This document shows positions 30,395-61,033 of a stretch of DNA of 64,000 nt, one piece after another. This DNA is from a virus. The DNA lies in IMG/VR virus record IMGVR_UViG_3300042988_001121, positions 1 through 64,000 of that record; one strand, written 5' to 3'. Position numbers and translations under genes: made by a program. The notes below the pieces were generated by a model. It was not told where the DNA came from. It worked only from the letters and a program-made list of their open reading frames with translations, and searched no databases. Numbering within the stretch: the stretch's first letter is position 1; each line of letters opens with the position of its first letter.

Positions 30395-30749
30395 AACGAT
30401 AATTAAAGCTGATCCAAGAGAAGTCATTGTTAAATGGGTCGGAAGTGGTACAGATACACTTACCCTTGCCTCTCTTGTTAGTACAGGTCAGACATTGACA
30501 GGAACCGTTGTACCTACAGTGGATATCCTAGCTGTTAGTACAAGCATCAGTGCTGCCGGTGAATGCACCATTACTCGTAACGGGCAGGATGTTCTGAAGG
30601 TTCATGATAATTACGAATTCCAGACAGATGGAATTATCACTGCTGTATTAAAAGAAAACTCTAGTCATGACATTGCTGTGAATCTTGCTGCTGCCGGTAC
30701 TCTGATCATGAGACTGCGTAAGACACAAGGCTATAGTTTAGGCGAATAA
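30381..30749 (+). CDS. Hypothetical protein in head operon
   Basis: 122-aa ORF between portal and protease genes. Confidence 0.65.
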   Translation: MALNKTIIKADPREVIVKWVGSGTDTLTLASLVSTGQTLTGTVVPTVDILAVSTSISAAGECTITRNGQDVLKVHDNYEFQTDGIITAVLKENSSHDIAVNLAAAGTLIMRLRKTQGYSLGE

Positions 30750-32527
30750 TGAAATTCATTACAGAAACATTCAATGATCCACTGAGTCTCTTGCTTGAAG
30801 CCGATGAGACTGGTAAGAAATTCTTACATATTCAAGGACCATTTGCTGTTGCGGAACAGAAGAATAAGAACGGTCGTATCTATCCAAAGCACGTTATGGA
30901 AAGTGCGGTAGACAGATATACCAACGATTATATTTCTCCTAGAAAAGCATTGGGGGAAATGAACCACCCTTGTTTCAAACCCGGAGCGAAGGTTTTTGTT
31001 TACAAAAAAGGTCTTATTAACATAGAAGATGTTAGTAAGGGAGATTATGTATATGGCACGACAAAGGAAGGTATTAGTAAACTTTCCCTAGTCATCGACA
31101 CGACAGAAACGCTGTTTTCAGGGGAATTGTATAATTTTGATTCTAGAGCGTTTAAAGCAACAGTCACTCCATATCATAGATTCTATTTGAAAAATAGAAA
31201 TGGCGAGTTCTCGGTTGTCACCGCAAATGACATTTTATCCGATTTTGAATCTGGTAGTAGAAAGTTATCGCATTCTTATATCCCAAGAACACTTGAAAAT
31301 TGGCAGGGAGACGAAGAAGAATATATCGAATTATTTCCAACAAGAGAAAGAAAAAATACTTATAATAAATCTTCTCTTGTGATGAAATTTAAAGATTTCT
31401 GTGCTTTCATGGGTATATATCTTTCAGAGGGTAATATAGATTATTACACGAGGAAGGACGATTCGAGAACTTATGGTGAAATAACAATTACACAAAATAT
31501 AGGAACGAACCTCGATCTAATAATAGATTTGGTTTCTAAACTTGGTGTAGATTCTACGAATATTAGATTGAAAAGAAACGGAAAAAGTACGGGGGTCGTA
31601 ATTTCTGACAATCGTTTAGCCGATTATCTTTCTCAGTTCGGAGACTGTTATACAAAATTTGTACCAGATATAATACTGAACGCATCAAAGGAAAATATTA
31701 AAGAATTTCTTGATTGGTATCAGTTAGGCGATGGTTCCAGTGTAACTATAAACCAAAAAGGAAAAGATTACACCAGAAATGATGTATTCACAGTTTCCGA
31801 AAAACTAGCAGACGGTCTAATCGAATGTATTATAAAATTGGGGTTTAGTACAACAAAGAGAGTACAACTTTCAAATGAAGATTATATGTTTGCCGGTAGA
31901 ATTATAAAATGCGAGTCAAAATCTCCTTTGTTTAGAATGACCATTGGTAAAGGCGTTGGAAAATATGTTGACGAAAGATTTACTAAAATAAATAAAGAAC
32001 AATATACAGGAAATGTATACTGTCTTGTAACAGAGACAGACAATTTTATGGTTGAACAAAACGGAACTGTATTTCTTAGTGGTAATTGCAGACTTAACAT
32101 TGATTACGAAAGAGCCACACATCTTATCACAGAAATGAAACAGGATGGTAATGTGTGGATCGGTAAAGCTAAAGTTCTCAAGACCCCTATGGGTAAGGTT
32201 CTTGAAGGATTGTTGGAATCTGGTGTTGCTGTAGGTGTTTCTACTCGCGGTGCCGGTTCTATCACAGAGTCGAATGGCGCTAAAATGGTAGGAGATGATT
32301 TTTTCATGACTTCCGTTGATGTTGTTTCAGACCCATCTGGTCCCGGATGTGTTGTTAATTCTATCATGGAAGGCAGAGAATTCGATCTAGATGGGTTCGG
32401 CAATGCAATAGTCGAAGATTTAGCTGCAATCGCAAAAAAAGAATATGACAAAAAGCGATTGACAGAGCAAAGAAAAGTTGAATTGTTTAACCAATTCATT
32501 AAAAGTGTCCAAATTGGGCGCAAATAA
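30749..32527 (+). CDS. 21: Prohead protease gp21 precursor containing an intein
   Basis: N-extein I.G.F..AE.KNKNGRIYP...ALGEMNHP; C-extein GKAKVL.TPMG..L.GLLE.GV..GVSTRG.GS..D.VSDPS. Removing 372 aa leaves a 220-aa gp21. Confidence 0.95.
   Translation: MKFITETFNDPLSLLLEADETGKKFLHIQGPFAVAEQKNKNGRIYPKHVMESAVDRYTNDYISPRKALGEMNHPCFKPGAKVFVYKKGLINIEDVSKGDYVYGTTKEGISKLSLVIDTTETLFSGELYNFDSRAFKATVTPYHRFYLKNRNGEFSVVTANDILSDFESGSRKLSHSYIPRTLENWQGDEEEYIELFPTRERKNTYNKSSLVMKFKDFCAFMGIYLSEGNIDYYTRKDDSRTYGEITITQNIGTNLDLIIDLVSKLGVDSTNIRLKRNGKSTGVVISDNRLADYLSQFGDCYTKFVPDIILNASKENIKEFLDWYQLGDGSSVTINQKGKDYTRNDVFTVSEKLADGLIECIIKLGFSTTKRVQLSNEDYMFAGRIIKCESKSPLFRMTIGKGVGKYVDERFTKINKEQYTGNVYCLVTETDNFMVEQNGTVFLSGNCRLNIDYERATHLITEMKQDGNVWIGKAKVLKTPMGKVLEGLLESGVAVGVSTRGAGSITESNGAKMVGDDFFMTSVDVVSDPSGPGCVVNSIMEGREFDLDGFGNAIVEDLAAIAKKEYDKKRLTEQRKVELFNQFIKSVQIGRK
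30971..32086 (+). mobile_element. Intein with LAGLIDADG endonuclease in gp21
   Basis: Starts CFKPGAKV, block B VTPYHRFY, FMGIYLSEGNI and WYQLGDGS motifs, ends VYCL.TETDNF...VFLSGN before a +1 Cys. Confidence 0.92.
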
Positions 32528-34834: not shown

Positions 34835-34859
34835 AAAAGGGCACTTCGGTGCCCTTTTT
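34835..34859. terminator. Bidirectional rho-independent terminator
   Basis: AAAAGGGCAC-TTCG-GTGCCCTTTTT between convergent gene 23 and the minus-strand endonuclease. Confidence 0.92.
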
Positions 34860-36499
34860 CATTTCTTTATCCCATAAACTTTGTTTCCGAAGTCATAAAT
34901 CTTTGAATACCCCAATTGTACCATAATATCTTCTGTTTTCATTGAAGAAAATTCAGGGTATTTTTCAATAAGTTTCCAGCGCTGAAACGTCATTCTGGAG
35001 TAACGCTTGCCGCCCTTATACCAACTGAACCCTTGCTCTGTTTGTTTTAGTTCAGTGAACCCCATATTTTCATATAGTTTTCCTGTTCCCCACCGAAGAT
35101 CACAATAAGAAATAATAGAGTCTGGTTTAGCGGATGACATAAAATGTTTTAGCAGTTTAGATGCACCGCCGATAACATTCGTATCGTTCAATGAGCAAAA
35201 TCGGAGCAATTCATACTGGTACTCTTTATTGAATCTAGACAAACCAAATGTCATTACAGCAACGAGTTCACCTGAATGTATTAGACCATATCTATGTTTT
35301 GATTGACACCAGCCCTGTATGTGATTTGTTTCAATAAATTCTCTACACTCAGTTTCTGTTAATTCAATGACAGAACATTTTCTTGCATGAATCTTTTTTT
35401 CTGTGATACCAAATATAGAACGAAGTCTTGAATAAACAATGTCTTCATTTTCGTCATCAAAGATTTTAATCAATCTGATACCAATTGAATCGCACATAAC
35501 TTTCTTGTGGTAATCGTCTTTATCTCGATGGAAGTAAAGACCATCATATTCAATCGCAATATTTTTCTCTGGAACAACTATATCCAACTCATATGGAGCA
35601 ATAAGTGTTCTGTCGTTTACCAAACAATTGAAACCGGCGTTCTGTAACATATCAACGATTCTTTTCTGTGGAACCGATCTGATGTTGCATTTAGGACAGA
35701 ATAATTCTTTTTTACTGAGAATGCTAGCCGAAAATTCAGTTGAACAGCAATTACATTTCCAGTTATATTTCTGATATCGAATATCCGATTCAATATACTT
35801 TTCAACTGTATCAAGACATTTTATGTTGCATGTAGTTTCAAGTAATGAAACCTTTTCTTTAAACCAAGGTATCGCAACATTCTGGTTATAGGTATCATTC
35901 AGTTTTCTTGACCCGAGCCTTTGTTGACGAATATTGTCTCTGTATTCTAAATTTGCATCTTTACAATCAACTGAACAGAAATCAGCAATACTTTTACCAT
36001 AAGGAGTTTGACTGACATTGTGAACAGGAATGATATCACCACACTCTTTACATTTCCGAATCAATTCGGAGCCATATTTTTCTATCTGAAGTAATGTCTT
36101 GATATCATTGAAATCGTGTTTCTCTTTAAGAGAGTCAACCGTTGCTTTTGACAGAAACTTATCTACCTTGCTCCATGAAAGATTACCATTCTGATCATAT
36201 AGAATAGAAAAATCTTCCAATATCGGTAAAGAAGAATCTTTTGTAGCAGAATACTCGTATTTACATTTCAATGAACAAGTTGATCCAAAAGACCCTTTCT
36301 TGAAATTGAGTCGGTCGAATACATCACCACATACCTTACATGTAGGAATCTCACCATGAATAACACCGGCTATCAGAGTCATTGCAGATAGCCCCTTGCG
36401 AACACCAAGGTAGGATTCAACCATTTCTCTATCTTCTGAAAAGGAAGATAACACATTGCTATTCAAGCCGCCCTGTTTGTTCAAATACTTTTCTAACAT
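34859..36499 (-). CDS. Hef-like free-standing homing endonuclease
   Basis: CxxC Zn-binding repeats, ELDI..PEKNIAIEYDGLYFH PD-(D/E)xK-type core, and ARKC...NHIQG...ELLRFCS...GGASKLLKHF...SYCDLRW C-terminal domain; opposite strand, AT-rich. Confidence 0.75.
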   Translation of the reverse strand: MLEKYLNKQGGLNSNVLSSFSEDREMVESYLGVRKGLSAMTLIAGVIHGEIPTCKVCGDVFDRLNFKKGSFGSTCSLKCKYEYSATKDSSLPILEDFSILYDQNGNLSWSKVDKFLSKATVDSLKEKHDFNDIKTLLQIEKYGSELIRKCKECGDIIPVHNVSQTPYGKSIADFCSVDCKDANLEYRDNIRQQRLGSRKLNDTYNQNVAIPWFKEKVSLLETTCNIKCLDTVEKYIESDIRYQKYNWKCNCCSTEFSASILSKKELFCPKCNIRSVPQKRIVDMLQNAGFNCLVNDRTLIAPYELDIVVPEKNIAIEYDGLYFHRDKDDYHKKVMCDSIGIRLIKIFDDENEDIVYSRLRSIFGITEKKIHARKCSVIELTETECREFIETNHIQGWCQSKHRYGLIHSGELVAVMTFGLSRFNKEYQYELLRFCSLNDTNVIGGASKLLKHFMSSAKPDSIISYCDLRWGTGKLYENMGFTELKQTEQGFSWYKGGKRYSRMTFQRWKLIEKYPEFSSMKTEDIMVQLGYSKIYDFGNKVYGIKK

Positions 36500-36531
36500 A
36501 AATACCCCAACAAAATAATTCATAGTATATC

Positions 36532-36735
36532 ATGGAATCAAGAACACATCAATTGGATAACACAAAACTCTCGGGTAACATCTTTGAAAGCATTCTAGCT
36601 GCTTCTCATGATTGCTATATGAGTCGAAGAAGGGAAAACAGAAACATAGAACTCGGGGCAGATGCACCAAGAGGAAAAGAATCTGCTTTCATTGGTGGCT
36701 GTGTAACGAGTCTTCTGAAGGTACAAAATGGCTGA
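36532..36735 (+). CDS. Hypothetical small protein
   Basis: 67-aa ORF downstream of a late box and overlapping the gp3 start; could be spurious. Confidence 0.35.
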   Translation: MESRTHQLDNTKLSGNIFESILAASHDCYMSRRRENRNIELGADAPRGKESAFIGGCVTSLLKVQNG

Positions 36736-37210
36736 TGCTGGTTTTAACCATCTACAGACAAATGCATTCACGTTTACTTTACAGAGGATGCAAGCAACTA
36801 CCTTTAGAATAACTTCAGCCGAGGTGCCATCAATTACTGTTCCTCCACCAAGTACAGGAACACAGGGAGCAACACAATATCATCCCGGTAGTTTCACTGA
36901 GTTTGATGAATTGTCTCTGAGATTTATTGTTGATGAAGACCTTCAGAATTACGAAGAAATATATCATTGGATAACACAACAGAGATATGCTATTGGCACT
37001 GCATATCAGCCAAAGTCAGATGCAGAGAAATTATTAGTGAGTGATGGGTTTCTAACGACTCTGACTAATAAGAGCAATCCAAATAGAACAATCTATTTTA
37101 AGGATATGTTTCCTATTGCATTAGGTAGTCTTGCATTCAATGTTCAAGAGACACCAGAACCATTGACATGTTGGGTAACATTTAGATTCAGTTACTTTGA
37201 GTTGAGGTGA
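36728..37210 (+). CDS. 3: Tail tube terminator/completion protein gp3
   Basis: N.F.F.L.R...F..TS..VPSIT, PG....FDELSLRFIVDEDLQNYEEIY.WI, F.D.FPI.LG.L.F, .TFRFSYFE. Confidence 0.9.
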   Translation: MADAGFNHLQTNAFTFTLQRMQATTFRITSAEVPSITVPPPSTGTQGATQYHPGSFTEFDELSLRFIVDEDLQNYEEIYHWITQQRYAIGTAYQPKSDAEKLLVSDGFLTTLTNKSNPNRTIYFKDMFPIALGSLAFNVQETPEPLTCWVTFRFSYFELR

Positions 37211-37254
37211 TCATCATTACAGGTACTCTGTACTCATAAGGATTCATTAGACTC

Positions 37255-38006
37255 TGTTTGGGTAAACCAAACCATAGTGTGCTCCGCACATCGCTACGCG
37301 ATCATCCTTTATTTTTCTTTTTTCTTTTCGCGACTCCCTCCGGTCATACAGCGGTTGAGAAAAACAAAGTTACCCCGTTTCCGGGGGTAAGACGATGTTT
37401 CTCCCAACCACCGTATGATTTAAATCAGCATAGCTGATCATACATCGGCGTCGAATGAACTTAGTTTGATTTACAACCCCATTCCTATCTCAGAATGTTT
37501 AGGTAGCGCGGTGATTAAACGCTTTACGTAGTTACCTCTATCACTGTGGGTACTGACAAGAAATCAAACGTCTTCCGGGTTACTCAGTGTTCTACAGAAC
37601 AAAATTCACTCCGGTTGTCAATACCGTGGCACGCCCGCAGGTGCCTCTGCCCACCCTATTTCAGATCATAGTGAGCTTACCCTACTCTTTCTTTCACCAC
37701 CCGTTATCTACGATAAACTGAATTCGTGTTTTTCGGGAGGAACCATATCCTCTTGTGGTCTACTCGATTAGATGTAGTCAATCCATTTAGCTATGTGGTC
37801 AACCCATAGCCTAAGTCATCAATGCTTCGTTACGCTGCCATTGACACCAGCTACAGACAGTTTAAGGAGTAGATTGCGGCTCCATCAACAGAACAGTAGT
37901 TTTAAGTGGTACTCGTCACTGATAAATAAAATGCAGTTTAGTGAGTATGCGGCTCAACAGATGGTACAGCAGAACAGTAGTTTTAAGTGGTACTCGTCAC
38001 TAACTT
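37255..38006 (-). ncRNA. Candidate large structured non-coding RNA (minus strand); boundaries approximate
   Basis: No credible ORF; many hand-verified helices, including a 22-bp helix with four G.U pairs and an 11-bp helix with one G.U that are perfect only on the minus strand; minus-strand late box CATAAATA at 38017-38010. Confidence 0.6.
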
Positions 38007-38054
38007 GGATATTTATGTTTTCGATGAACTGGTATTTTAACGTGGTACTCGGCA
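37889..38054 (+). repeat. 32-bp direct repeat x2 plus a degenerate third copy
   Basis: CAGAACAGTAGTTTTAAGTGGTACTCGTCACT at 37889-37920 and 37970-38001; GAACTGGTATTTTAACGTGGTACTCGGCACG from 38026. Confidence 0.9.
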
Positions 38055-38139
38055 CGAACAGATGCTATTTATCAACACTATAACACAGAAAACGTTTGAG
38101 TCAACACATTGGTTGACACATTTTGAAAATAAATTATTT

Positions 38140-38580
38140 ATGCTTGATCATGAACAGCTTTTGACCGAATGGGAAACCGATTGTAAGGTTCCCTCTGATG
38201 CTCTGTTAGAGCGCATGTACAGACACCCCATCCTTCATAGCAAGTATCTTGGCTACCTACAGTCTTATAAGATCAGTAGTCGTAAGGTCACACTTCGCTA
38301 TCAGAAACTCCGGCTCCTGAAGACCCGTTACTATAACGGAGAACTGTCAGAAGAAGAACTAATTGAGAACAATCTTAAACAGTACCTGTATAAGCGACCT
38401 TTGAAGTCGGAAATGGAATCTCTACTGGATGCCGATGCTGATCTTCAGAAACTTCAGGAACAGATTCTGTATATCGAGACTTTGATTCAGAGTACCGAGG
38501 CTATCATGAAAGAGTTGACTAACCAACACTATCTGTTCAAAAATATCATTGAACAGACCAAATATCTTACAGGGAATTGA
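38140..38580 (+). CDS. uvsY: Recombination mediator UvsY
   Basis: W..DC......L......P.LHSKYL..L, Y.G......PLKSE...LD.D.DL; directly upstream of uvsW; start at ATG 38140. Confidence 0.88.
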   Translation: MLDHEQLLTEWETDCKVPSDALLERMYRHPILHSKYLGYLQSYKISSRKVTLRYQKLRLLKTRYYNGELSEEELIENNLKQYLYKRPLKSEMESLLDADADLQKLQEQILYIETLIQSTEAIMKELTNQHYLFKNIIEQTKYLTGN

Positions 38581-40751: not shown

Positions 40752-41761
40752 CAGCACTTTATATAGAAATCTCCTACTCAAAACAAGTAGGGGCTGCTCT
40801 TGAGCGTTTTCGTGTAAAACGTGAATCTCCTTTTCTGGCAGCGGCTCGATGCCCAATCTGTGGCGACTCAGCTAAAAGTAAGTCAAAGACTCGTTTCATC
40901 TTCTATGAGCGAGAAAGTCATATCAATGTGATGTGTCATAATTGTGGCTACAGTAGCTCTGTTGTCACATTTCTGAAGAATCATTACAACAGTCTCTATA
41001 ACGAATATATCATTGAGAAATATAGAGTAACCGGAAATGATAGAGAAAAAGAAACATTTAAAATACCTGTCTCTGCGCCTGTCATTAAACCAAATTCATT
41101 AGATTTACCTCTGGTTAAAAATCTTCCGGTAACTCATATTGCGAGACAATATGTTGATTCAAGAAACTTGCCTGAATATGGGTTTCAATTTGCAGAAGAC
41201 TTTTATGGGTTCTGTCAGCAATATAATAGTTCTATACCCGAGACTAAAAACAAAGAACCTAGACTCATAATTCCTTTCTTTGATCGGAAAGGAAACGTAT
41301 TTGCATTTCAGGGGCGCGATCTAACAGGAAAGAGCAAGCAAAAATATATTACCATCACGATTGATGACAAGACACCAAAAATATTTGGTATAGATCGTCT
41401 TGATGTTAAGCAGCCTGTTATCATTGTCGAGGGTCCAATTGATTCGTTGTTTCTTCCGAATTGCATTGCATCCGTGAATGCTTCTTTGGTTGCCACTGCC
41501 AAAAAGTTGACCGGAGTAATAAATAAAACCTCCACCACACTAGTCTATGATAATGAACCGAGAAATAAAATTATCGTAGAGCAGTATCAGAAGGCTATTG
41601 ATGCCGGATATCCAATAGTCATATGGAGTAAAGAGTGCGAGGGGCTTAAAGATGTTAATGACATGATTCTTGCTGGAATCGATGTTAAGAAGGTGATCAA
41701 AAAGAACACTTTTAGTGGTATAATGGCGAAGATAAAATTTTTGGAGTGGAAAAAGGTATGA
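40748..41761 (+). CDS. 61: DNA primase gp61
   Basis: RCPICGDS.KSK.K.R...CHNCG Zn finger, PRLIIPFF...FAFQGR, IVEGPIDSLF, YDNEPRN, KD.NDM. Confidence 0.96.
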   Translation: MTALYIEISYSKQVGAALERFRVKRESPFLAAARCPICGDSAKSKSKTRFIFYERESHINVMCHNCGYSSSVVTFLKNHYNSLYNEYIIEKYRVTGNDREKETFKIPVSAPVIKPNSLDLPLVKNLPVTHIARQYVDSRNLPEYGFQFAEDFYGFCQQYNSSIPETKNKEPRLIIPFFDRKGNVFAFQGRDLTGKSKQKYITITIDDKTPKIFGIDRLDVKQPVIIVEGPIDSLFLPNCIASVNASLVATAKKLTGVINKTSTTLVYDNEPRNKIIVEQYQKAIDAGYPIVIWSKECEGLKDVNDMILAGIDVKKVIKKNTFSGIMAKIKFLEWKKV

Positions 41762-44538
41762 CAGATATTGTGATCGACACATCACGTGATGAATTGTTTG
41801 ATGAAATTTCCTTGGCGCGACTCAAGGACTCGTATATGATCGAAGGAGAAACAACTCCGCAAGAGCGTTATGCGTTTGTTTCAAAACAGTTTGGGTCAAA
41901 CCCAGAGCACGCACAGCGATTATATGACTATGCGTCAAAACATTGGTTTGGATATTCAACCCCTATTCTTTCGTTTGGTCGAAATAAAGGTGGTTTACCC
42001 ATCAGTTGTTTCTTGGTATCTGTTCCTGATACTAAAGCTGGATTAGTTGATTCTTTGTCCGAAACAAATTGGCTTTCGATGCTCGGTGGCGGCGTTGGTG
42101 TTTATTTTGCGACTCGTGGCGCAGACGAAAAATCTGTTGGGGTGATTCCTCATTTGAAAGTATATGATGATTCTTGCCTTGCGTTCAAACAGGGTTCGAC
42201 CCGCCGTGGTTCATATGCTGCATATCTTGATATCAGTCATCCAGATATTATGGATTTTCTTGATATGCGCAAAGAAACCGGTGATCAGCGCCGCCGTTGT
42301 TTGAATCTCCACAATGCAGTGAATATTCCTGATTCTTTCATGAAATTGGTTGAGGGTCGAATGCTTGATCCTAAATTTGATGATACATGGGAATTGAAAG
42401 ACCCTGTGTCCGGTAAAGTACACGAAAAGGTCAGTGCTTCGGAATTGTGGATTAAACTGCTTGATCTTCGTGCAGGAGTCGGTCGTGGTGAGCCTTATAT
42501 TCTTTTCACTGACAATGTTAATAATCAGGTGAAACCTGTTTTGCGTGAACGTGGATATAAAGTCAATCAATCAAATCTTTGTGTTGCGCCAGAAACTCAA
42601 ATTTTGACAGAAAACGGATATGAAACAATATCTGATCTGGAAAACGAAACTGTATCTGTGTGGAATGGACAGGAATTTTCTAATGTTATTGTTCGCAAGA
42701 CCGGAGAAAATCAGAAACTGATCCGTGTTATCACAGATTCTGGGTTTGAACTTGAATGCACCCCATATCATAAGTTTTATGTCCATCAATATGTCAATGG
42801 CAAGAAAACTACTGTTGAAAAACGCGCTGGCGAATTGCTTCCCGGCGACAAGTTGATCAAGAGCGATTACCCTGTCATTGAGGGAACAGAGACTCTGGAA
42901 TATGCCTATGACAACGGTTTTTATACAGCCGATGGTTGTCTTGAGGCTAGAGGTCAGCGCGTTTATCTCTATGGCGAGAAACAAAAATTGAAACCATTCT
43001 TGTCGGATATCTATGGGAATTGGTGTGAGTCAAGTAACTGTGATCGTATAACTGCTACTACCAGAAAACTGAAGGACAAATATTTTGTTCCTAATGGAGA
43101 TTATACGATTAAATCTAAATTAGATTGGTTTGCTGGTTTGTGTGATGGTGATGGCACGGTTTGTCGGAACGGAGAATCTCAATCTATTCAAGTTTGTTCT
43201 GTTCGTAAAGAATTCTTACAACAGGTTCAATTGATGCTGCAAACACTTGGTGTGTATTCAAAGGTAACAAAATCAGTTGATGCAGGCTTTCGCCAGCTTC
43301 CAAAGAATGACGGTTCAGGAGAAAAAGGTGACTATTTCTGTCAGACAACGTATCGTCTGATGATTGGTCAACGTTATATTGAAAAACTCATTTCTCTTGG
43401 TTTTAAGACACATCGATTGGTTCTGACCAATCATACTGGCAATCGTGAGTGTACCCATTTCATTAAGGTTGAAGCCATCATCGATGATGGTCGTTATGAT
43501 GATACATATTGTTTCACCGAGCCAAAGCGACATATGGGCATGTTCAATGGTATGTTGACAGGTCAGTGCAACGAAATCATGTTGCATACCGATGCACAGA
43601 ATACCGCTGTTTGCTGTTTGTCTTCGATCAACTTGGATCGTTGGGATGAATACAAAGACAATTATCAGTTTTTCCTTGATCTGATGGAAATGCTTGACAA
43701 TGTGTTACAATACTTCATTGACAACGCACCTGACACAATTTCTCGGGCAAAATATTCTGCGATTCGAGAGCGTTCTGTCGGTCTTGGTGTGATGGGTTAT
43801 CATTCATACTTGCAACAAAAAGGCGTTGCATTTGACAGTGCAGTTGCAAAGGCATATAACAAAAAGATTTTCAAAACATTCAAGGAAATGCTTGATCGTG
43901 CTAACATTGATCTTGGTTCTTCTCGCGGTTCTCCTGCTCTTTTAGAAGGAACTGGATTGAGATTCGCGCATTGTAGTGCATTGGCACCAACAGCATCGAA
44001 TGCATTGATTTGCGGTAATGTGTCGCCTTCTATTGAGCCTTGGCATGCGAATGCTTTCCGTCAAGATACTTTGTCAGGTACTTTCATTCAGAAGAATAAG
44101 TATCTGAACCAGATTATCATTGAACTGGAAGCCGCAGGAAAATGTGATGCAGATGATGTGTGGAAGCAGATTGTTGCCGCAGATGGTTCTATTCAAAATA
44201 TTGATGTATTTGATGATCATACGAAGGAAGTCTTTAAGACAGCACCGGAGATTGAACAATTGATGTTAGTTGAACAGTTGACAGATCGACAGCCATATAT
44301 TGATCAAGGACAGTCTTTTAACATTTTTATTCGTCCAGACATTTCTATTCCTAAACTCCATGCGATACACTTCAACGTATGGAAAAAAGGTGGAAAGGGA
44401 ATGTATTATGTAAGGTCAGAGAAATTGGCTAATGCAGAGAAAGTGAATGCAAAGGTAGTTCGAGTAAAATTGGAAGATGAAATAGATATGAAGGCAGTTG
44501 CCAATGGTGATTTGGAATGTTTGGTGTGTAGTGGATAG
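41758..44538 (+). CDS. nrdA: Ribonucleotide reductase class I alpha subunit with intein
   Basis: STPILS, PISCF, GGGVG, QG.TRRGSYAAYL, QSNL|C.EI, AVCCLSSINL, RSVGLGVMG, ALAPTAS, YY.RS, C-terminal CLVC. Confidence 0.97.
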   Translation: MTDIVIDTSRDELFDEISLARLKDSYMIEGETTPQERYAFVSKQFGSNPEHAQRLYDYASKHWFGYSTPILSFGRNKGGLPISCFLVSVPDTKAGLVDSLSETNWLSMLGGGVGVYFATRGADEKSVGVIPHLKVYDDSCLAFKQGSTRRGSYAAYLDISHPDIMDFLDMRKETGDQRRRCLNLHNAVNIPDSFMKLVEGRMLDPKFDDTWELKDPVSGKVHEKVSASELWIKLLDLRAGVGRGEPYILFTDNVNNQVKPVLRERGYKVNQSNLCVAPETQILTENGYETISDLENETVSVWNGQEFSNVIVRKTGENQKLIRVITDSGFELECTPYHKFYVHQYVNGKKTTVEKRAGELLPGDKLIKSDYPVIEGTETLEYAYDNGFYTADGCLEARGQRVYLYGEKQKLKPFLSDIYGNWCESSNCDRITATTRKLKDKYFVPNGDYTIKSKLDWFAGLCDGDGTVCRNGESQSIQVCSVRKEFLQQVQLMLQTLGVYSKVTKSVDAGFRQLPKNDGSGEKGDYFCQTTYRLMIGQRYIEKLISLGFKTHRLVLTNHTGNRECTHFIKVEAIIDDGRYDDTYCFTEPKRHMGMFNGMLTGQCNEIMLHTDAQNTAVCCLSSINLDRWDEYKDNYQFFLDLMEMLDNVLQYFIDNAPDTISRAKYSAIRERSVGLGVMGYHSYLQQKGVAFDSAVAKAYNKKIFKTFKEMLDRANIDLGSSRGSPALLEGTGLRFAHCSALAPTASNALICGNVSPSIEPWHANAFRQDTLSGTFIQKNKYLNQIIIELEAAGKCDADDVWKQIVAADGSIQNIDVFDDHTKEVFKTAPEIEQLMLVEQLTDRQPYIDQGQSFNIFIRPDISIPKLHAIHFNVWKKGGKGMYYVRSEKLANAEKVNAKVVRVKLEDEIDMKAVANGDLECLVCSG
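42580..43566 (+). mobile_element. Gln-terminal intein with LAGLIDADG endonuclease in nrdA
   Basis: Starts CVAPETQIL, block B CTPYHKF, GFYTADG and AGLCDGDG motifs, ends TYCFTEP.RHMGMFNGMLTGQ before Cys (329 aa). Confidence 0.93.
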
Positions 44539-60956: not shown

Positions 60957-61033
60957 GCGCCTGTAGCTCAGTTGGACAGAGCAACAGCCTTCTAAGCTGT
61001 GGGTCAGAGGTTCGAATCCTCTCAGGCGCACCA
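60957..61033 (+). tRNA. tRNA-Arg (TCT)
   Basis: GCGCCTG/CAGGCGC acceptor stem, ACAGC-CTTCTAA-GCTGT anticodon arm, GGTTCGAATCC, encoded CCA. Confidence 0.96.

Follow-up and report, generated by a model that had tools for sequence, protein, structure and literature searches.

A candidate large structured noncoding RNA between gene 3 and uvsY of a T4-like virus

The gene 3–uvsY gap and its features

The window analyzed here covers the first 64,000 nucleotides (64 kb) of a 178-kb virus record that is complete (G000). The genome is T4-like, and its genes for the major head protein, a tail tube-like gene 3 product, UvsY, and the UvsW helicase follow the customary order. Among cultured phages, Synechococcus phage BUCT-ZZ01 is nearest (head protein 63%); only 8 nt separate its gene 3 and uvsY, and in most relatives the slot between these genes is short or filled by protein genes. 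In the window, the gap runs from 37211 to 38139 (929 nt). An initial annotation had described it as about 600 nt and as the only long noncoding gap of the genome. The gap exists and is the window's principal ORF-free stretch, but the genome has a second one (G000 149258-149870), and the boundaries first drawn were too narrow. The gap is longer because UvsY starts at 38140. At 38056-37860, the repeats are read as pseudoknots, which are also present in a homologue, and the transcript probably includes them. The features are given below, with comparisons to L059, a locus that carries the homologue in a second lineage.

36728..37210, plus strand: gene 3-like, tail tube/terminator protein, left flank (PHROG 45 tail tube, E 1e-27)
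37278..37302, minus strand: two tandem GCGNAGC-type mini-hairpins, downstream of H8 and the purine-rich tract
37303..37343, minus strand: purine-rich tract (U-rich on the plus strand), read from the sequence
37344..37418, minus strand: H8, long hairpin of 23 bp plus an apical stem, found by a model built without the window (E 2.7e-6)
37424..37438, minus strand: H7, 6-bp hairpin with a UAU triloop; 5/6 pairs with two-sided changes
37480..37497, minus strand: H6, 6-bp hairpin; correspondence to L059 set by hand
37501..37702, minus strand: candidate long-range pairings of ambiguous register (37702-37695 with 37508-37501, and others), with candidates in both lineages
37549..37625, minus strand: H4, 11-bp helix around a lineage-specific branched insert; 5/11 pairs with two-sided changes
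37628..37645, minus strand: H3, 5-bp helix, invariant between the two lineages compared, with an apex that varies
37649..37676, minus strand: H2, variable stem with an invariant 14-nt loop, identical in both lineages
37737..37752, minus strand: H1, 5-bp hairpin with loop UAURGU; 3/5 pairs with two-sided changes against L059, hand-anchored
37855..38056, minus strand: array of five small predicted H-type pseudoknots (starts 38056, 38001, 37956, 37920, 37883)
38010..38017, minus strand: late-promoter box NATAAATA, noted in the initial annotation; the homologue is preceded by the same box
38066..38073, minus strand: late-promoter box NATAAATA, upstream copy
38077..38104, minus strand: sigma70-like promoter match (10/12, extended -10)
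38140..38580, plus strand: uvsY, right flank, true start 38140 (PHROG 231; 146 aa, as in homologues)

Further out, a large homing endonuclease-like gene (34859-36523, minus strand; PHROG 3339) lies between the major head gene and gene 3. Gene 3 is preceded by a 67-aa ORF (36532-36735) with no Pfam match for the window copy, but in relatives the syntenic gene weakly matches RNA polymerase omega (Rpb6). Judging by their translations, the prohead protease (30749-32527) and ribonucleotide reductase (41746-44538) ORFs are both enlarged by apparent inteins.

The box NATAAATA lies 22-62 nt ahead of many late genes in this genome. On the minus strand of the 178 kb it occurs just eight times. Three of these copies point into the gene 3–uvsY gap, at 38142, 38073, and 38017, and a fourth points into the second gap (G000 149258-149870). 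The copy at 38142 shares letters with the start codon of uvsY and is perhaps incidental. No ORF follows the late boxes at the gap on the minus strand. The sigma70-like match is not seen in the homologue and is possibly a chance occurrence, with six such sites found against 5.5 expected. The 35-nt repeats form part of the five predicted pseudoknots, whose unit has a 4-bp stem 1, a 3-4-bp stem 2, and a 6-nt A-rich loop 3. When the genome was scanned with a pattern designed after the five units had been seen, the sole cluster was the one here (background 0.18 per kb; shuffles gave a mean of 0.04 and a maximum of 2), and the pseudoknots are confined to the minus strand. Two copies, with different stems, occur at L058/L059, and stem 1 of a pseudoknot has a two-sided change in L197.

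At the other end, the tract at 37303..37343, being U-rich on the plus strand, is possibly the tail of a gene 3 terminator, and a terminator-like match lies on the plus strand at 37290-37302. Mini-hairpins of the GCGNAGC type have a far higher stability as DNA than as RNA and have been described at priming sites of phages and plasmids (PMC13037366). The pair at 37278..37302 is probably a separate DNA-level signal or part of the gene 3 terminator. Genome scans found only two intergenic mini-hairpin tandems, one per large RNA.

Folding and conservation of the core

All sequences quoted in the initial annotation were found where it had placed them, and every helix and motif that it quoted is present. 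These include the long hairpin now called H8 (22 pairs, four of them G.U, extendable to 23), the 11 pairs of H4 (one G.U), the small hairpins, both GTATGA partners (37443 and 37349), and the late box at 38017. Its description of the region as highly structured holds for the 23-bp hairpin, which beats shuffles, but over most of its length the region does not fold better than shuffled sequence. Folded as a whole against 20 shuffles per strand, the region had z-scores of -3.3 (minus) and -4.1 (plus). Among 120-nt windows only 37321-37440 stands out (-9.0 minus, -4.4 plus), and with the big hairpin excluded, 37860-37425 scored -0.8 on the minus strand and -2.2 on the plus strand. Folding energy is thus weak for most of the length, and the case therefore rests on comparison with the homologue.

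A comparison of gene 3–uvsY gaps revealed this homologue at L058, L059, and L197-199, in the same slot and on the same strand, in one other lineage that is only distantly related. There, the gap is ~1 kb long, and a 46-nt minus-strand stretch is 83% identical to the window (E 2e-6). We refer to the RNA of both lineages as family A. UvsW is ~50% identical between the two, closer uvsY relatives of the window lack the RNA, and the two carrier lineages are not sisters in a quick tree, which may be compatible with one origin followed by losses.

Between L197 and L059, the core is 96-100% identical per 50 columns, and third codon positions of gp3, uvsY, and uvsW are 65-82% identical; by this measure, the core is under strong purifying selection that exceeds the selection on neighboring genes. 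All five core substitutions at confidently paired sites preserve the minus-strand pair, three via G.U exchange and two as a single two-sided change in a GAAA-capped hairpin (L197), an outcome with a chance of ~6% if all changes are transitions (0.57 each). On the plus-strand fold, 0/6 substitutions preserve the pair. Six further changes, in the pseudoknot region and the 3' hairpin cluster, were scored as broken; nested folding misreads the pseudoknot region.

Between the lineages, the comparison spans two independent lines of descent, too few for a statistical covariation test. H1, H2, H4, and H6 were aligned manually. The positions of H1-H4 and H6 correspond, their loops are of equal length, and H7 and H8 are 5 nt apart in both lineages. 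The H4 insert measures 55 nt in the window and 13 nt in L059, with an equal offset from H3. The end of the H2 loop, C-UGAAA-UA-G, is one that we take to be T-loop-like, judging by the consensus. Independently of the hand alignment, a covariance model of the 3' domain was built from the other lineage only, with the window excluded. In an unfiltered search, its best match in the window, at 37340-37457, lay on the minus strand and scored 37 bits (E 2.7e-6); the plus strand reached 9 bits. Default filters missed the window, which only the unfiltered search recovered, and absence calls elsewhere are therefore weak. The homologues' own plus strands score 30-40 bits against this model, so a long hairpin by itself can score. 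In an alignment fitted to the model, 36/37 pairs of H7 and H8 are kept between the lineages at 49% identity (18 unchanged, 4 with one-sided and 14 with two-sided changes, and 1 broken); one small hairpin of the model is absent in the window.

Two proposals of the initial annotation found no such counterpart. A conformational switch had been suggested for the long hairpin, but at the corresponding position of the homologue the 5' strand of the hairpin lacks an alternative partner. Likewise, no equivalent of the proposed pseudoknot GTGAT/ATCAC crossed by AGGTA/TACCT was seen in the homologue, and this pairing competes with another of 8 bp.

It could be argued that the gap encodes no functional RNA and is instead a DNA element, such as an origin with iterons and cruciforms, together with a terminator, so that the helices are DNA structures or chance. 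The plus strand does fold equally well by overall z-score, the 35-nt repeats are iteron-like, the mini-hairpins are of a DNA type, and the slot in L023 holds plain repeats and the same mini-hairpins. However, the wobble changes are strand-specific, the GAAA tetraloop hairpin has a two-sided change in L197, the pseudoknots are on one strand only, and the late boxes have no downstream ORF. We consider this explanation very improbable. The same-strand homologue, the two-sided and wobble-to-Watson-Crick changes, the purifying selection, and the null result in Rfam support the original proposal of a minus-strand, late-promoter-driven, uncatalogued large structured RNA. The gap most likely holds a gene for a folded RNA of ~700 nt outside the catalogued families, and this RNA is very probably real, transcribed, and structured.

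Known RNA classes and sister families

In Rfam, the window's RNA had no match at gathering score or at E up to 10, and the homologous loci had none either. This includes the covariance models of GOLLD, ROOL, OLE, HEARO, and raiA, which matched neither the window (tested to E 10) nor the homologue. BLAST against cultured phages returned nothing for the family A element or its homologue, motif scans of viral and genome contigs gave chance matches only, and literature searches found no description of the family A RNA. An intergenic region of an unrelated phage (L187:1700-2225) matches the L059 H3 hairpin over 21 nt. This region, which is without the H2 loop and has no Rfam match, was excluded; its likeness to H3 may be chance or a shared module.

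To our knowledge, large structured RNAs of bacteria and phages are rare, and those of known role are ribozymes or core machines. The likeness of family A to RNase P RNA lies in its size, the T-loop-like element, and a possible crossing long-range helix, but neither CR-I nor CR-V (P4) is found in the window, and there is no Rfam match. Group I and group II introns were rejected, as the window has no R or S and no domain V, and no gene is interrupted; L059 alone has one S-like string, with two mismatches. The hammerhead core motif is absent from the window.

These absences, together with the lack of any Rfam ribozyme match at E up to 10, weigh against family A as a new large ribozyme or other catalytic RNA, with an active center formed by the invariant H2 loop and H3, perhaps inside a long-range pseudoknot. 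Such a role would fit with the concentration of invariant residues in one loop and one short helix, where conservation goes beyond the needs of pairing, with the crossing long-range pairings that are possible in both lineages, and with a size akin to that of RNase P and introns. On balance, we regard a catalytic role as improbable.

The phage RNAs GOLLD and ROOL need no protein to assemble, and the predicted RNA of family A resembles them in being large (600-800 nt), multi-helix, accessory, and phage-encoded, with a conserved core and variable arms (PMC12286853). Unlike these RNAs, it belongs to a lytic T4-like genome, is preceded by a late box, and has a tandem 5' pseudoknot array. GOLLD and ROOL are often found at tRNA islands, but the window's tRNA genes, at 60957 and 61725, are 23 kb away from family A. 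An ORF-free span whose predicted structure has two-sided changes, as seen in the two lineages, is what characterizes the broad kind of large orphan phage noncoding RNA. Family A is apparently a large RNA family of this kind, with a new layout and previously undescribed.

The small H-type pseudoknot units, predicted from sequence and covariation, and their variable copy number are also features of ToxI/antiQ and of the pseudo-ToxI of phage TE, where expanded pseudoknot repeats serve as an antitoxin mimic (PMC5086642). The spacing in the window is 36-55 nt, against 34-36 nt for type III antitoxin monomers (PMC5086642). Unlike ToxI, the units are not identical tandem repeats, adjoin no toxin gene, and are fused to a 500-nt core. 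Type III antitoxins have near-identical repeats arranged head to tail, then a terminator and a toxin gene; the array here departs from this layout, with unequal spacing, two unit types, no downstream ORF, and no Rfam match. Template RNAs of retrons, DRTs, or DGRs were rejected, with no PF00078 reverse transcriptase match in the genome, although very divergent reverse transcriptases could escape such a search.

Two further uncatalogued large RNAs, families B and C, occur in this clade. Family B (~450-550 nt, seven members) is ORF-free, led by a late box, and better sampled than family A, with two-sided changes in 37/55 predicted pairs. Its copy in this genome lies on the minus strand at G000:C1:149258-149870 (L055:1759-2371), between the late sigma factor gene and its neighbor, and those of relatives lie upstream of uvsY (L011, L012/L047, L069/70/72/74, L077, and L081). 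Family C has two ORF-free members on the minus strand (L057:3120-3740 and L099:4720-5230), directly after gene 3, with a late box and a long closing stem; by eye, two 5' pseudoknots of L057 resemble those of the window. Neither family matched Rfam or family A. At the sensitivity of BLAST or of the models, none of the three families was found in the complete relatives G001, G002, and BUCT-ZZ01, and the family A RNA is therefore accessory. That three distinct large RNAs occur in one slot of a lytic T4-like clade suggests that such phages are an unmined source of RNA families.

Possible roles of the family A RNA

The reading that we tentatively favor, although we place it slightly short of an even chance, is that of a stand-alone accessory late noncoding RNA that acts as a folded scaffold or decoy. 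The RNA, ~700 nt long, would be transcribed late from the minus-strand phage late promoter and, if stable, would bind and hold proteins. Its two to five 5' pseudoknots may cap it against nucleases or soak up a host RNA-binding defense protein, the invariant H2 loop and H3 helix may be where it makes a tertiary contact or meets a partner, and the long variable helices would be structural arms, as in GOLLD and ROOL. We favor this reading because of the predicted late timing, the patchy presence, the variable pseudoknot copy number, and the small invariant core among variable arms, and by analogy with GOLLD and ROOL (PMC12286853) and pseudo-ToxI (PMC5086642). It leaves the consistent adjoining DNA mini-hairpins unexplained.

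These mini-hairpins are central to the main rival, a structured pre-primer of a replication origin like ColE1 RNA II or the T4 origin R-loop. The transcript would run toward the purine tract and mini-hairpins and hybridize to the template, and the displaced strand would load primase. Indeed, the RNAs of families A and C and most of family B run toward a mini-hairpin cluster just beyond the 3' end, and hairpins of this type are found where phage and plasmid priming takes place (PMC13037366). Those of family A are on the non-template strand after a purine-rich tract, and the locus adjoins uvsY and uvsW. As with T4 oriF/oriG and ColE1 RNA II, the transcript heads into a purine/AT-rich tract near uvsY, with mini-hairpins on the displaced strand. 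A late promoter may be needed by T4 oriC, but T4 oriF and oriG use middle promoters, need neither a specific downstream sequence nor a folded RNA, and are silenced late by UvsW (PMC3016281). Family A appears to have a late rather than a middle promoter; the late box alone is conserved there, and the sigma70-like site is found in the window only. Moreover, family B has the mini-hairpins on the template strand, family C has them on both, and L074 lacks them; they occur without any RNA in L023 and G002 (neither of which has family A), and the family A RNA itself is patchily distributed among relatives. We therefore regard a pre-primer as unlikely.

Patchy spread could also indicate a selfish or mobile RNA-templated element, or its remnant, that inserts in the slot. 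The element is missing from closer relatives, the quick tree does not place its two carriers as sisters, other inserts occupy the same slot, and a homing endonuclease gene lies 700 nt off on the same strand. However, there is no PF00078 reverse transcriptase match in the genome, no ORF inside the element, and no endonuclease next to the homologue. Purifying selection exceeds that on neighboring genes, and the tree is compatible with one origin plus losses. A mobile element is accordingly very unlikely.

A broader reading may also be considered, although we think it somewhat unlikely. The gene 3–uvsY slot would hold interchangeable cassettes of at least three unrelated, late-controlled large RNA families, and family A would form a functional class of its own, with a decoy of multiple pseudoknots joined to a core that self-assembles or is catalytic, directed against host defense or starting late replication. 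With its defined promoter, small invariant core, and repeated pseudoknot module, family A is a direct target for probing and cryo-EM.

Elsewhere in the clade, tandem or clustered mini-hairpins of the GCGNAGC type recur in long gaps, on either strand and with or without an RNA (G000 149392-149417, L023:3913-3939, G002 120640-120680, and L099:4580-4680), and are a candidate priming or origin signal. L023 is the nearest uvsY relative of the window and has only the 3' mini-hairpins in common with it; upstream of uvsY, they follow three imperfect, iteron-like repeats of ~90-100 nt (L023:3450-3900). A weak match (E 0.6) also lies upstream of gene 3 in Pseudotevenvirus genomes.
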